A stretch of DNA of 64,000 bases. It comes from Candidatus Zipacnadia bacterium. Lineage in GTDB: Bacteria > Armatimonadota > Zipacnadia > Zipacnadales > UBA5352. This document shows, piece after piece, positions 4,713 to 21,099 of this stretch. The number at the start of each line of letters is the position of its first letter. Position 1 is the first letter of the stretch. Position numbers and translations under genes: made by a program. Location of the stretch: assembly GCA_029820295.1 (NCBI GenBank), contig JALGVA010000005.1:1025-65024 (forward strand), given 5' to 3'. The notes beneath the pieces are model-generated. The model worked only from the letters and a program-made list of their open reading frames with translations. It searched no databases and was not told the DNA's origin.

Positions 4713-4789
4713 TGGTAGCGCGGGGAGGATTCGAACCTCCGACCTCAAGGTTATGAGCCTTGCGAGCTACCAGACTGCTCCACCGCGCG
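4713..4789 (-). tRNA. tRNA-Met (anticodon CAU) with initiator-like features (C1:U72 mismatch, A11:U24), CCA encoded
   Basis: Manual folding of the reverse complement gives a 7-bp acceptor stem (positions 2-7 paired, 1:72 C-U unpaired), D-stem GAGC/GCTC, anticodon stem CAAGG/CCTTG with loop CTCATAA, T-stem GGAGG/CCTCC with loop TTCGAAT, and a 3' ACCA. A 9-bp hairpin (4673..4703) follows the 3' end. Confidence 0.8.
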
Positions 4790-15944: not shown

Positions 15945-18128
15945 CTACCACGTCCGCACTTCGGCCCTCAGCTTGCTGCCCAGGTTCTGCGTGATCCGGC
16001 CCATGGCCTCATCGACTTCTTCGTCGGTGAGCGTGCGCTCCGGGTGGCGGAAGCTCAGGCGCAGCGCGACGGACTTGCGTCCCTCGCCCACCCGCTCGCG
16101 GTCCGCGTAGACGTCGAAGACCTCAACGTGCTCGAGCAGCTCGCCGCCGGCGGCCCGCGTCGCCTCGACCACCCGGGTCGCCGAGTGGCGGTCGTCGTCA
16201 TCGAGTACGAGCGCCAGGTCGCGGATGGCCGCCGGCAGGCGCGGCAGCGGCGCGTAGGTCGCCAGCAGGCGAGCGCGCGCCAGCACGGCATCAAGGTCGA
16301 TCTCCAGCACACACGCGGGCTCAGGCAGGTCGTAGGCCTCCTGCACCTGCGGGGAGATCTCGCCGACGACGCCCACCGGCTCGCCGTCGATCAGCACCTG
16401 CGCTGTGCGGCCCGGGTGCAGCGACGGGTGCTCCCCGCGCTCGAAGCTCACCCCGGCGATGTGCAGCCGGCGCATGAGCTGCTCGAGGACGCCCTTGAGC
16501 CAGTAGAAATCCATCTTCTCGTACTCGTCGGGCAGGTTCCAGGTCGAGGTGCGCGCGCTGCCCATGACCAGCGCGGCCAGCGAGTGCCGCTCGTCGGGGA
16601 GCGCGCTGCCGTCGCCGAAGAACAGCCGCCCGATCTCGAACAGCGCGACATCCTCGACGCGCTGACGCACGTTGCGCTGCGCGGCGTCGAGCAGACCCGC
16701 GAGCAGTGTGGTGCGCATCAGCTCCTGGTTCTCGGCCGCCGGGTCGCGCAGCACCAGCGCCTCGCGCTCGCAGGCGTCCTCGGGATAGCACAGGAAGTCG
16801 AGGTCGCGGCGGCCCATCATCGAGAAGCTCACGTTCTCGCACAGCCCCGCGCCGCGCATCACCTCGCTGACGCGCTGGTCGAGCTTCTGCCGGCGGGTGC
16901 GCACGCCCGCGCCCGAGGTGTTCTCCGGCAGCGTGGTCGGCAGGTTGCTGTAGCCGTGGACGATGGCGATCTCCTCGATCAGGTCGATCTCGCGCTCCAG
17001 GTCGGGGCGGCGCGTGGGCACCGAGATGGTCAGGCGCTCGAGCGCCTGCTCGCGGTCGGGGTACGCACGCAGCCACTCAGTCTCCATGCCCCCCGGCGCC
17101 TCGGCCTTCTCGGGCTTCACCGCGAAGCCGAGGCGCTGGAGCAGCTCGATCTGCTCGTCGGTGGACAGCTCGGTGCCGAGCACGTGGTTGGTGCGCGCGG
17201 GGCGCAGCGTGATCGGCTCGCGCGTGAACTCCCCCGCGCGCACGTCGATGGCCGGCGCCGCCGCCGAGCCCCCGGCGATCTCGGCGATGAGCTGCGCCGA
17301 GCGCGCCAGCGCCGGCAGCGTCAGGTTCGGATCGACGTGGCGCTCGAAGCGGTACGACGCCTCGCTGCTCATGCCCAGACGCTGGGCGGTGCGCCGGATC
17401 ATGGTCGGGGCGAAGTGCGCGGACTCGATGAGCACGTCGGTGGTGCGGTCGCGCATCTCGGTGTCCCGGCCACCCATCACGCCGGCGAGCGCGACCGCGC
17501 CCTTGGGATCGGCGATGACCAGGTCCGCGGAGGTCAGCTCACGCATGGTCCCGTCGATGGTGACGAGCTTCTCGCCGTCGGCGGCGCGGCGCACAATGAT
17601 GTGGCCCTGGACGATGAGGCGGTGGTCGAAGGCGTGCAGCGGCTGGCCCAGCTCCCACATGGCGTAGTTGGTGGCGTCCACCACGTTGCTGATGGGCCGC
17701 AGGCCCGCGGCCTCCAGGCGGTGCGCCATCCACGGCGGCGACGGCCGTACCTCGACGCCGGTGATCCGCAGCGCGCTGTAGCGCGGGCAGCCCTCGAGGT
17801 CATCGATGGTGATGCGCGTGTCGCCCTGCTCGACGTCGCGCTCACCCATGACCGGCTGCTCGGTCTGGGGGATCGAGCAGTCGGGGAGCTTCAGCGCGCA
17901 GCCCAGCAGAGCGGCGGCATGGCGCGCGACGCCAACCATCGACAGCAGGTCGCCGCGGTTGGAGGTCACCGAGGTGATCAGGATCTGGTCGGTCGCCTGA
18001 CCGTCGGCGGACGTCCAGTCGATGATCTCCTCGACCTCCAGCCCGCCCATGGTGAGTATCTCGGCCAGCTCCCCGGCTGCGACCTCGGTGTCCAGGTACT
18101 CCATCAGCCAACTGTATGGGACGCGCAT
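15945..18128 (-). CDS. pheT: Phenylalanine--tRNA ligase beta subunit
   Basis: MRVPYSWLMEYLD N-terminus and overall PheT architecture, including the B3/B4 and B5 domains. 727 aa. Confidence 0.9.
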   Translation of the reverse strand: MRVPYSWLMEYLDTEVAAGELAEILTMGGLEVEEIIDWTSADGQATDQILITSVTSNRGDLLSMVGVARHAAALLGCALKLPDCSIPQTEQPVMGERDVEQGDTRITIDDLEGCPRYSALRITGVEVRPSPPWMAHRLEAAGLRPISNVVDATNYAMWELGQPLHAFDHRLIVQGHIIVRRAADGEKLVTIDGTMRELTSADLVIADPKGAVALAGVMGGRDTEMRDRTTDVLIESAHFAPTMIRRTAQRLGMSSEASYRFERHVDPNLTLPALARSAQLIAEIAGGSAAAPAIDVRAGEFTREPITLRPARTNHVLGTELSTDEQIELLQRLGFAVKPEKAEAPGGMETEWLRAYPDREQALERLTISVPTRRPDLEREIDLIEEIAIVHGYSNLPTTLPENTSGAGVRTRRQKLDQRVSEVMRGAGLCENVSFSMMGRRDLDFLCYPEDACEREALVLRDPAAENQELMRTTLLAGLLDAAQRNVRQRVEDVALFEIGRLFFGDGSALPDERHSLAALVMGSARTSTWNLPDEYEKMDFYWLKGVLEQLMRRLHIAGVSFERGEHPSLHPGRTAQVLIDGEPVGVVGEISPQVQEAYDLPEPACVLEIDLDAVLARARLLATYAPLPRLPAAIRDLALVLDDDDRHSATRVVEATRAAGGELLEHVEVFDVYADRERVGEGRKSVALRLSFRHPERTLTDEEVDEAMGRITQNLGSKLRAEVRTW

Positions 18129-18218: not shown

Positions 18219-19238
18219 TCAGAACTGCCGCAGCATGCGCATGTCGCCGCTGTAGAGCAGGCGCATGTCGGGGATGCCGTAGCGGTTCATGGCGAAGCGC
18301 TCGACGCCCACGCCGAAGGCGAAGCCGGTGTAGCGCTCGGTGTCATAGCCGACGCCGGCGAGCACGTTGGGATCGACCATCCCCGAACCGCCCAGCTCGA
18401 TCCAGCCGGTGCCCTTGCACACGCGACAGCCCTCGCCCGAACAGGCGAAGCAGGAAACCGCGAACTCGGCGCTGGGCTCGGTGAAGGGGAAGAAGTCCGG
18501 GCGGAAGCGTACGCGCGCCTCCTCGCCGAACATGCCGCGCGCGAAGGCCAGCAGCGTGCCCTTGAGGTCGGCCATGGTGATGCCCTCATCCACGCACAGG
18601 CCCTCGAGCTGGTAGAAGGTGTGTGAGTGCGTGGCGTCGAGGGTATCGCGGCGGAAGCACCGGCCGGGCACGACGACGCGCACCGGCGGCTCCTGCGTCT
18701 CCATGACGCGGATCTGCACCGTCGAGGTCTGGCTGCGCAGCAGCACATCGTCGGCGATGTAGAAGGTCATCTGCTCGTCCATCGCCGGGTGGTCGGGCGG
18801 GTAGTTGAGCGCCTCGAAGCCGTAGTAGTTGTTCTCGACCTCCGGCCCCTCGGCGATGGTGTAGCCGAGCCCGAGGAAGATCTCAAGCATGTCGTCGAGG
18901 GTGGCCAGCAGCGGATGCCGGCCGGCGATGTGCTGGGCGCGCCCGGGCAGGGTCACGTCAATGGCGCTCTCAGCCGCGCGCAGACGGCTCTGTCCGGCCT
19001 CCAGCTCCTTGCGTCGGGCCTCGAGAAGGGCCTCGAGTTCGGCGCGCGTCTCGTTGATGAGCCGGCCGAACTGCGGGCGCAGCTCCTTGGCGAGGTCGCG
19101 GATGCCCTGCTGGATGTCGCGCAGGATGCCGCTGCGCCCCAGGTAGCGGGCGCGCGCCTGCTCGAGTTCGTCGAGGTTGGTGGCCTCGCGCAGCGCCCGG
19201 CGCGCCGCCTCGGCCATCTCACGCAATCGATGCTCCAT
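18219..19238 (-). CDS. pheS: Phenylalanine--tRNA ligase alpha subunit
   Basis: Class II aaRS motifs (FRPDFFPFTEPS, GxGxGxER: GFAFGVGVERFAM). 339 aa. Confidence 0.9.
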   Translation of the reverse strand: MEHRLREMAEAARRALREATNLDELEQARARYLGRSGILRDIQQGIRDLAKELRPQFGRLINETRAELEALLEARRKELEAGQSRLRAAESAIDVTLPGRAQHIAGRHPLLATLDDMLEIFLGLGYTIAEGPEVENNYYGFEALNYPPDHPAMDEQMTFYIADDVLLRSQTSTVQIRVMETQEPPVRVVVPGRCFRRDTLDATHSHTFYQLEGLCVDEGITMADLKGTLLAFARGMFGEEARVRFRPDFFPFTEPSAEFAVSCFACSGEGCRVCKGTGWIELGGSGMVDPNVLAGVGYDTERYTGFAFGVGVERFAMNRYGIPDMRLLYSGDMRMLRQF

Positions 19239-19501
19239 GATCCTGCCTCCTCACTGCTGCCCCCGGATACGCAAACAGCCCCGCCTCTCGTCCCAGGGAC
19301 GAAAGCACGGGGCCTCCGTTGTACCACCCGTCGGGTGGGAAATGTGCTCCGGTAACGGTGGAGCGCCCGGCTGGGCCTACTGGCGTCCGCGCACACGCGG
19401 ACCGTTCGGCCTGCGACTCGGGAGCGAACTTCGGCGTGGCGTCCGGTCGGGGCGCTCTCAGCCCGTGGCGGCCCCTCTCTGTCGGCCGACTTGCCCCGCG
19501 C
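19239..19501 (-). promoter_or_regulatory. Putative T-box-like leader with intrinsic terminator upstream of pheS
   Basis: On the minus strand, GGGUGGUAC (the T-box core GGGUGGNAC; plus-strand coordinates 19321-19334) is immediately followed by a long GC hairpin (19278-19313) and UGUUUGCG. A UUC codon (GAAGUUCGC) lies about 100 nt upstream. GAGGAGG RBS is present before the ATG. Confidence 0.35.
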
Positions 19502-20320
19502 CTACTTCTCTCCGTCACTGTCGTTGGTGCGGCCTCGTTGTCTCAGGATCTCCCAGATGAGCACGCCGGCGGCGACCGCCACGTTCAGGCTCTGGGCGCG
19601 CCCGGGCATGGCGATGTACGCCCTCACGTCCGCCTCGCCCGCGACCTCGGCGGGCAGGCCATTGGCCTCATTGCCCACCATCACCAGTGCGCGCCGCGGG
19701 TAGCGGATCGCGGTGTGCGGCAGGGCGTCGTCGAGGCAGGCGGCGATCGACCTCATGCCCTGCGCGCGCGCCCAGCCCGGCAACTCGGCGATGCTCACGT
19801 CATCGACCGCCGGCAGATGGAAGATCGAGCCGGCGGTGGCGCGCACCACCTTCGGGTCGTACAGATCCACGCAGTTTCCGGCGGCGATGAAGCCCTGCGC
19901 GCCCGCCGCGTCGGCGGTGCGCAGCAGCGCGCCCATGTTGCCCGGGTCGCGCACATCCACCGCCGCGACCAGCAGATCGGCATCGGCGGGCAGGTCATCG
20001 AGTCCGGTGGCGGGGATGGTCACCGCCGCCGCGATGCCCTCAGGCGCCTGCACCTGGCTGAAGGCCCGGAAGGGCGCCTGAGCCATCTCCAGCACCTGCG
20101 CGCCGCTCGCCGCCAGCTCCCGGGCCAGCTCCGCGGCCCGCTCGCTCGCGATCAGCGCCGAGCAGTGGGCCACGGTGGCCAGCTCCAGCCCACCCGCGAG
20201 CGCCTCCTCAAGCGCGCGTACGCCCTCGACCAGAAACTGGCCGTGCGTGCGGCGGCCCTTGCGGGTCGCCAGCGCGCGCAGGCGCTTGACGTGCCGATTC
20301 TGCGTGCTCTCGACTATCAA
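19502..20320 (-). CDS. TrmH/SpoU family RNA 2'-O-methyltransferase (RlmB-like)
   Basis: SpoU methylase motifs (LDxVxDPxNxGAxxRTA: DVRDPGNMGALLRTA; MVGNEANGL). 272 aa. Confidence 0.85.
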   Translation of the reverse strand: MIVESTQNRHVKRLRALATRKGRRTHGQFLVEGVRALEEALAGGLELATVAHCSALIASERAAELARELAASGAQVLEMAQAPFRAFSQVQAPEGIAAAVTIPATGLDDLPADADLLVAAVDVRDPGNMGALLRTADAAGAQGFIAAGNCVDLYDPKVVRATAGSIFHLPAVDDVSIAELPGWARAQGMRSIAACLDDALPHTAIRYPRRALVMVGNEANGLPAEVAGEADVRAYIAMPGRAQSLNVAVAAGVLIWEILRQRGRTNDSDGEK

Positions 20321-20360
20321 CCTGTTCGCCCGGGCCGCGCGGCGGCGGCCCTGCGTCGGC

Positions 20361-20720
20361 TCAGGCGGGCATCTCCTGCTTGGCGATCTCGGCCACGGTG
20401 GCGAAGGCCTCGGGGTCGTGCATCGCCATCTGCGCCAGCATCTTGCGGTTGATGAGCACGCCGGCCTTCTTGAGCCCGCCGATCAGGCGGCTGTAGTTGG
20501 TGCCGTGGGCACGCGCCGCGGCGTTGATGCGCGCGTTCCACAGCCGGCGGAAGTCGCGCTTGCGTGCGCGCCGATCGCGCCATGCGAAGGCGCCCGCGCG
20601 CAGCACGGTGTCGCGCGCGGCGGTATACAGGCGGTGCCTGCCGCCCCACGCGCCCCTGGCGGCCTTGAGCACCTTCTTGTGCCGCCGCCGCCTGGCATAT
20701 CCGGTCTTCACTCGAGCCAT
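20361..20720 (-). CDS. rplT: 50S ribosomal protein L20
   Basis: MARVKTGYARRRRHKKVLKAARG... is canonical L20. Confidence 0.95.
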   Translation of the reverse strand: MARVKTGYARRRRHKKVLKAARGAWGGRHRLYTAARDTVLRAGAFAWRDRRARKRDFRRLWNARINAAARAHGTNYSRLIGGLKKAGVLINRKMLAQMAMHDPEAFATVAEIAKQEMPA

Positions 20721-20784
20721 CGAACGCTCTTCCCTTCGCCCGCGCCGGGCGCGGCCCGCGCGGGATCGTCTTGAATGCTCCGGG

Positions 20785-20988
20785 CTAGTCGTACGGCAGC
20801 AGCGTCTCCATGGTGCGCTTGTCGCCCGACTCGAGTTCCTTCATGCGCTTGAGGCGCCGCATGCGGCGGGCGTTCTTGGTGCCGGCCAGGTGGTTCTGCG
20901 CCTGACTGGTGTGCACCAGCTTGCCCGAGCCGGTGCGCCGGAAGCGCTTGGCTGCCGACTTCTTCGTCTTCATCTTGGGCACCGCCAT
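20785..20988 (-). CDS. rpmI: 50S ribosomal protein L35
   Basis: MAVPKMKTKKSAAKRFRRTGSGK... Internal ATG chosen, giving 67 aa. The 9 upstream codons of the track ORF were rejected. Confidence 0.9.
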   Translation of the reverse strand: MAVPKMKTKKSAAKRFRRTGSGKLVHTSQAQNHLAGTKNARRMRRLKRMKELESGDKRTMETLLPYD

Positions 20989-21099
20989 CAGTCCCCTTAC
21001 GTGTCCGGGCCACACGGGCCCGGCCTGGTATGCCAGAGAAAGCCGGGCCGACCGAGGCGGGCCCCGGTCGGCTGGTCGTGCGTGCCGCGACTGCTCCGC

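Follow-up and report, generated by a model that had tools for sequence, protein, structure and literature searches.

The window, as we call the whole stretch of 64,000 nucleotides analysed here, carries on its minus strand the genes pheS and pheT, preceded by an ORF resembling TrmH/RlmB RNA methyltransferases and by a structured leader, which begins within the end of this ORF and stops shortly before pheS (Table 1). PheT, separated from PheS by a gap of 90 nt, comprises 727 aa and aligns with an offset of about 80 positions on the 798-position TIGR00472 model; a shortened N-terminal region is possible. Upstream of the methyltransferase are two ORFs of roughly 100 aa (20317-20649 and 20708-21013, minus strand); they have no NCBIfam match and may not be real genes. 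The sole other structured RNA detected in the window was a tRNA-Met (CAU) gene at 4713-4789 on the minus strand.

An initial annotation, made from the letters of the sequence, had described the region 5' of pheS as a 263-nt intergenic segment with a T-box core, a GC-rich hairpin followed by UGUUUG, a UUC codon within GAAGUUCGC and an AGAGAG element. All four elements are present on the minus strand. The extent has to be revised, since the 5' strand of Stem I starts at about 19522, some 20 nt inside the methyltransferase ORF, and the leader therefore extends past the intergenic region. To these elements our analysis added a K-turn, a distal loop, Stem II, a IIA/B pseudoknot with its F-box, and the antiterminator helices A1 and A2. 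The missing Stem III and the overlap with the ORF upstream had escaped the initial annotation.

Table 1. Coordinates of the genes and leader elements at the pheS-pheT locus (window numbering; descending ranges are read in the direction of transcription)
Feature	Position	Strand	Basis or remark
pheT, second gene of the operon	15945..18128	-	TIGR00472, 579.5 bits, above curated cut-off
pheS, regulated gene	18219..19238	-	TIGR00468, 306 bits, above curated cut-off
Shine-Dalgarno GGAGG of pheS, outside the terminator	19246..19250	-	Sequence reading; low pairing probability, no consistent partner
TrmH/RlmB-like RNA methyltransferase ORF, upstream	19502..20320	-	Sub-threshold RlmB/TrmH matches; synteny; stop position variable in relatives
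Complete T-box leader, Stem I base to terminator U-tract	19272..19522	-	RF00230 alignment; model R1; alignments A1 and A2
Stem I	19415..19522	-	RNAalifold unaided; covariation
Stem I base helix	19522-19520/19417-19415	-	
K-turn, AGUGAC opposite CGA	19519-19514 opposite 19420-19418	-	
Further Stem I helices	19513-19510/19424-19421; 19502-19496/19439-19433	-	
Distal helix of Stem I	19474-19468/19455-19449	-	
Specifier loop 5' side, AGAAGUA	19509-19503	-	
AG bulge ACAGAGAG	19475..19482	-	Aligns to Rfam AGAGA; conserved in A2
AGAGAG	19480-19475	-	Within ACAGAGAG
Stem I distal loop, with GCUGAGA at 19462-19456	19456..19467	-	Rfam alignment; GGCUGAGAGC near-invariant in A2
Specifier loop 3' side, GAA-G-UUC-G	19425..19432	-	Rfam model GAAauucaC; conserved in relatives
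GAAGUUCGC	19432-19424	-	UUC at 19428-19426
Stem II; S-turn halves GAA 19407-19405 and AGUA 19381-19378; apical hairpin 19402-19385	19371..19414	-	Rfam alignment
IIA/B pseudoknot; IIA 19369-19367/19358-19356; F-box CCGUUA 19358-19353; IIB GCUCC 19364-19360 with GGAGC 19350-19346	19346..19369	-	
Pyrimidine-rich 16-nt linker ACAUUUCCCACCCGAC, in the place of Stem III	19330..19345	-	MFE of the linker alone = 0
T-box core GGGUGGUACA	19320..19329	-	GGG is the 5' strand of A1; UGGUACA is the 7-nt bulge
GGGUGGUAC	19329-19321	-	
Antiterminator; A1 19329-19327/19298-19296; A2 19319-19313/19305-19299; loop CCCCGUG	19296..19329	-	
Terminator hairpin 19314-19277 (loop CCUGG 19297-19293) and interrupted U-tract UGUUUG 19277-19272	19272..19314	-	

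Among Rfam families, the top match to the leader was the T-box family RF00230 (19527-19340, 25.6 bits, E=7.9e-4, permissive filters over 19150-19600). In the search of the whole window the E-value of the pheS leader was 0.11, and at the gathering score tRNA was the only family returned. The RF00230 alignment passes in order through the K-turn UGA...GA, AGUA, ACAGAGAG, GCUGAGA, GAA-G-UUC-G, the GAA...AGUA of Stem II and CCGUUA, and then jumps 68 model positions corresponding to Stem III and the antiterminator, the 3' domain being skipped. With its 25.6 bits the leader misses the RF00230 gathering score of 93 bits, which was likewise reached by none of 20 relatives (0/21 leaders including that of the window). 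In E-value mode RF00230 matched directly upstream of pheS in 16 of 17 orthologous Armatimonadota leaders, with 29-79 bits and E-values from 2e-15 to 0.016, and the positive control, the pheS leader of Blautia hansenii (locus L068), exceeded the gathering score with 104.6 bits. The remaining weak hits to Rfam families (F6, HOXA11-AS1, CRISPR-DR29, P10 and mir-1292) were dismissed as chance. The MFE z-score of the whole leader (0.03) is uninformative for a GC-rich bistable RNA.

A search with PheS as query yielded 80 loci, the closest 48 of which (56-92% identity) came from Armatimonadota MAGs labelled Ca. Zipacnadia, WS1 or Armatimonadia. Most of these 48 loci carry an F-box and a GAA-N-UUC-R motif upstream of pheS at fixed spacing, and the same elements in the same order were found 5' of pheS in more than 40 Armatimonadota genomes. 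The 5' domains of 27 leaders were aligned with MAFFT (alignment A2) and the 3' domains of 30 leaders were compared in alignment A1; a clade-specific covariance model of the 3' domain was designated R1. This model matches the window at one site (19261-19379, 98 bits) and also nearly all the Armatimonadota loci, its only match among the loci outside the phylum being a weak one to the Blautia leader (15 bits). No second T-box was found in the window with either the permissive Rfam mode or R1.

Some loci depart from this arrangement. At four of them (L038, L042, L044 and L047, e.g. L047:1-306) the Phe T-box is separated from the downstream pheS by over 1 kb and precedes another gene situated between the two, so that it appears to control a longer operon; the leader of L047 retains Stem III. 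At L037:1319-1423 (Ca. Zipacnadum vermilionense) nothing beyond the terminator half can be recognised, the UGGU core being mutated and a TATAAT lying just upstream, which looks like a decayed T-box that has lost its tRNA-sensing parts.

The four helices of Stem I, together with IIA, were recovered by RNAalifold without guidance from the 27 5' domains. Stem I positions are 94.6% paired in the alignment, against 41-52% when the partners are slid, and compensatory changes affect 18 of 24 pairs (101 cells), including all seven pairs of the distal helix. The helices flanking the K-turn are 99-100% paired, also with compensatory changes. In the specifier loop, GAA forms half of an S-turn, UUC is the Phe codon and G19425 is the conserved 3' purine; essentially all relatives keep a UUC (or UUUC) specifier, and the base 3' of it is a purine in 23 of 27. 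The specifier thus agrees with the downstream gene. As judged from the sequence, the GCUGAGA of the distal loop corresponds to GGUGNRA, the platform in contact with the tRNA elbow.

Stem II shows the conserved S-turn halves GAA and AGUA. Its apex was too variable for column alignment by MAFFT and was tested sequence by sequence instead: an apical hairpin was found in all 27 leaders, formed by unrelated sequences of 13-45 nt (median z -2.4), and this evidence concerns the apex rather than the basal helix. In the adjoining pseudoknot the F-box CCGUUA is invariant in 30/30 leaders, IIA is 99% paired, and all five IIB pairs show compensatory changes.

When applied unaided to the 30 3' domains, RNAalifold returned IIA and a canonical antiterminator, with A1 formed by GGG/CCC, a 7-column bulge and an A2 helix of 8 bp. 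Taken together, the antiterminator, IIA and IIB are 92% paired, compared with 45-63% for slid partners, and four of the seven A2 pairs show compensatory changes. The hexamer GGGUGG of the core is invariant in 30/30 leaders, and its UGGU (19326-19323) is complementary to the 3' ACCA of tRNA. A tRNA-Phe is expected to carry an A73 discriminator, with which the N of UGGN would pair; this position is U in 29/30 leaders, the exception being L003:1399-1405, where the bulge reads UGGC and N is unable to pair with A73. No tRNA-Phe gene (GAA anticodon, A73) was found in the window or at 52 loci.

The GC-rich terminator hairpin, with stems of 8 and 6-7 bp, is 86% paired in the alignment of the relatives, and its lower stem shows compensatory changes. 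Antiterminator and terminator are mutually exclusive, because both use nucleotides 19296-19305, which the terminator employs in its 5' strand. Their predicted energies are -8.1 kcal/mol (without tRNA) and -24.3 kcal/mol respectively, and this modelled gap is the asymmetry expected of a switch that would need tRNA to hold its ON state. The initial annotation had stated that the T-box assignment should be given up if an RF00230 score below threshold coincided with the absence of a mutually exclusive antiterminator fold. The score does fall short (25.6 against 93), and the antiterminator fold exists, so the assignment stands.

Counting U residues after stems defined by RNAfold is biased, because the U-tract pairs back onto an upstream GAAAG, and we therefore compared runs of U with the background. 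Runs of at least four U follow the terminator stem in 29 of 48 relatives, compared with a background of 2.2% among windows of 32 nt. Interrupted tracts, with no such run after the stem, characterise the window and the three relatives nearest to it (L001, L003 and L004), and a strict terminator scan of 18900-20000 called no site. The predicted terminator rests on comparative evidence, and owing to its interrupted U-tract and the result of the scan, the efficiency of termination in this organism is the weakest link in the reading that follows.

Our analyses support the identification of the pheS-pheT leader as a tRNA-Phe-specific T-box riboswitch of class I (transcriptional), to which we assign a probability of about 0.9. 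The RF00230 matches and the covariation bear out the proposal of the initial annotation, namely a Phe T-box with a UGGU acceptor site, a UUC specifier, an AG box and a terminator. That transcription is terminated by this leader in this particular organism is likely, though less firmly so than the family assignment; tRNA binding, the sensing of tRNA charge and actual termination are steps that we infer. Directly observed are all the sequence elements, covariation in each helix, the exclusivity of the two folds and the order of their energies, the agreement of codon and gene, and conservation throughout a phylum. In the proposed mechanism, Stem I would fold during transcription and, together with Stem II and the IIA/B pseudoknot, would capture tRNA-Phe, the UUC specifier pairing with the GAA anticodon and the distal platform stacking on the elbow of the tRNA. 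An uncharged tRNA would pair through its 3' ACCA with UGGU in the 7-nt bulge and stabilise the weak antiterminator (A1 GGG/CCC and A2 ACGGAGG/CUUUCGU), which would tie up nucleotides of the terminator 5' strand and allow RNA polymerase to read into pheS-pheT. With charged or absent tRNA the more stable terminator would form, and transcription would stop before the Shine-Dalgarno sequence.

The leaders of this clade differ from the canonical discriminator in four respects, which concern Stem III with its purine string, the tail of the bulge, the closing pair of A2 (in the window) and the presence of a C-rich tract. In canonical T-boxes the bulge ends in ACC, and the 3' aminoacyl group is sensed sterically by the G-U wobble pair closing A2. 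The window has ACA at the end of its bulge, and the clade ACA or AUA, rather than ACC, and A2 is closed in the window by an A-U pair (A19319-U19299); among the relatives this pair is G-U in 20/30 and A-U in 7/30, with the U retained. The linker that takes the place of Stem III in the window contains 31% purine and has neither RRRxG nor AA. Linkers that are too short for Stem III (10-18 nt) and lack the RRRxG...AA purine string occur in 35 of 42 leaders, that of the window included, and in 33 of these 35 the linker has an MFE of 0. A hairpin at the Stem III position was kept in seven relatives; it is short (4-6 bp) in the close relatives L005, L008, L009 and L011, and long in L040. At L075 and L080 a long canonical Stem III is flanked by AGAGUG or AGAGCG and by AA. 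Since canonical Stem III is present within the phylum, the state without it arose there and is both derived and predominant.

A rival reading takes the leader for a decaying or constitutive relic, i.e. a T-box descendant that in this sub-lineage no longer senses charge and acts as a fixed partial terminator, or is inactive. The missing Stem III and purine string, the A-U closing pair of A2 and the interrupted U-tract in the window would fit such a relic, as would the loss of tRNA-sensing parts at L037 and the overlap of Stem I with the upstream ORF. Against this, the UUC specifier, the distal platform, the S-turns, the F-box and UGGU are intact and near-invariant over PheS identities of 56-92%, and the helices are maintained by compensatory changes, which together argue for purifying selection on the whole switch; moreover, the form lacking Stem III is the majority state of the clade (35/42 leaders) and not a one-off lesion. 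We therefore regard decay as quite unlikely.

Another alternative is a translational T-box of class II-like type, in which a downstream hairpin would sequester the ribosome-binding site as in actinobacterial ileS leaders. The GC-rich nature of the organism, the poor U-tract in the window and in L001, L003 and L004, and the strict terminator scan without a site all lend themselves to this interpretation, which is nonetheless very improbable in view of the position of GGAGG 27 nt beyond the hairpin, where it stays mostly unpaired (probability of pairing 0.09-0.47) and lacks a consistent partner. The spacer between terminator and ATG ranges between about 10 and 263 nt in the relatives, so that no conserved sequestrator exists, most relatives have canonical U-runs, and Stem I is of full length, whereas that of class II leaders is truncated. 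A ribosome-mediated attenuator of the pheM type, which in E. coli pheST relies on a short leader peptide rich in Phe, would suit the same regulated operon and the terminator-like hairpin 5' of pheS, but it can be excluded, given that the six UUY triplets are scattered, no frame holds an ORF with clustered Phe codons, and the leader aligns to the T-box model instead.

The segment CCCACCC (19339-19333) of the C-rich linker is complementary to GGGUGG, and related sequences (CCACCC, CCACCU, CCAUCU or CCGCCU) occur 3-4 nt before GGGUGG, so that 41 of 42 leaders could form a hairpin of 5-7 bp between linker and core. The predicted energy of this linker:core hairpin in the window is -9.8 kcal/mol, and the unconstrained MFE fold contains it alongside the terminator. 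Shuffled linkers match the number of base pairs in 30-50% of trials in the group of the window, p values of 0.02-0.05 being confined to the ACCGCCU group; C-richness explains the pairing potential in the shuffles, and the potential alone is therefore not evidence for the hairpin. With an invariant T-box core, the linker:core helix can show no two-sided covariation.

The C-rich tract may, as a hypothesis, be an anti-antiterminator that pairs with the GGGUGG core. We tentatively suggest, as a possibility to which we give rather less than even odds, that the clade represents a natural minimal-discriminator T-box without Stem III and purine string, in which the C-rich tract would serve as the anti-antiterminator of a three-state switch. 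The 3' end of uncharged tRNA would then have to strand-displace this internal decoy before the antiterminator could form. The stacking role of Stem III might be taken over by the adjacent IIA/B pseudoknot. Stem III and its 5'-RRRxG...AA-3' purine string have been described as integral to the discriminator that senses aminoacylation, and as indispensable (PMC7583486), and a 2024 paper states that Stem III is present in every known T-box. PMC7583486, PMC11404447 and phrase searches yielded no account of a natural T-box that lacks Stem III, and in the literature searched we found no anti-antiterminator described for T-boxes.

The last ~7 codons and the stop of the methyltransferase ORF overlap the 5' strand of Stem I, and its UAG (19504-19502) falls inside the conserved AGUAG of the specifier-loop S-turn. 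A ribosome terminating at this codon could leave the base of Stem I unfolded, and could thus disturb folding of the leader on read-through transcripts. In the relatives the ORF usually ends in ...EILRQR, leaving 1-170 nt up to the K-turn; in the window, L001, L003 and L004 it is about 10 codons longer (…GRTNDSDGEK*), running into the 5' strand of Stem I.

A scan of 18900-20000 for sigma-70 promoters called none. A RACAAY motif is conserved about 24-28 nt 5' of the K-turn, even in non-coding context; it reads GACAAC in the window (19540-19545, minus strand) and CACAAU or GACAAU in relatives, and it is carried by L005-L013, L015, L022 and others. Instead of this motif, L016, L019, L023, L024, L026, L031 and L033 have a perfect TATAAT about 35-45 nt upstream. 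One possibility is that RACAAY serves as a -10-like promoter element lying inside the methyltransferase gene.

The origin of T-boxes has been placed in a common ancestor of Firmicutes, Actinobacteria, Chloroflexi and Deinococcus-Thermus, and more than 95% of early T-box hits were in Firmicutes. In the NCBI taxonomy Armatimonadota are placed in the kingdom Bacillati, the same kingdom as the phyla of the presumed T-box origin, which makes vertical inheritance plausible. We found no paper naming both T-boxes and Armatimonadetes or Armatimonadota in the literature searched. The phylogenetic novelty pointed out by the initial annotation therefore holds in so far as the occurrence is new to the searched literature, and has to be tempered in that it is coherent with the placement of the phylum and not anomalous.

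The leaders described here extend the T-box regulation of an aminoacyl-tRNA synthetase to Armatimonadota. They also have a bearing on annotation practice: the RF00230 gathering threshold misses this entire clade, and standard annotation consequently under-reports T-boxes in GC-rich, uncultured lineages. If the leaders are functional, as the strong purifying selection suggests, they would constitute a natural counter-example to an indispensable and universal Stem III, and would allow the contribution of Stem III, and its possible substitutes, to be tested directly. Should the minimal-discriminator reading prove true, Stem III would not be universally needed for charge sensing, and these leaders would provide a compact natural scaffold for dissecting the function of the discriminator.

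Among known systems, one of close architecture is the pheS T-box of Blautia hansenii (Bacillota, class I, RF00230), which shares with the window the regulated gene, the Phe UUC specifier and the order of domains, namely Stem I, Stem II, the IIA/B pseudoknot with its F-box, the GGGUGGNAC core and an antiterminator overlapping the terminator. The Blautia leader has GAGUG, Stem III and AA before the core and a UGGUACC bulge; the window, in contrast, has no Stem III or purine string and shows a C-rich linker, the ACA tail, the A-U pair closing A2 and the interrupted U-tract. The distant Armatimonadota pheS T-boxes of L075, L080 and L071 belong to the same phylum, precede the same gene and share Stem I, Stem II and the pseudoknot (RF00230, 66-79 bits), but differ from the window in their long Stem III, flanked by AGAGUG or AGAGCG and AA, and in their UGGUACC. 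The glyQS T-boxes show the reverse of the situation in this clade, as they naturally lack Stem II and the IIA/B pseudoknot and keep Stem III, and they provide a precedent for the loss of a whole T-box domain with function kept (PMC7583486). In the S-box (SAM-I) riboswitch and other attenuators, an upstream strand pairs with the 5' half of the antiterminator and favours the terminator, the role that CCCACCC:GGGUGG may play here; the anti-antiterminator of the S-box is, however, stabilised by its ligand, whereas in the window the tRNA 3' end would displace the putative helix. Finally, the pheST operon of E. coli, with pheM, is the same operon and is also controlled by premature termination, but there Phe codons are sensed by means of a translating ribosome, for which the present leader has no corresponding ORF.
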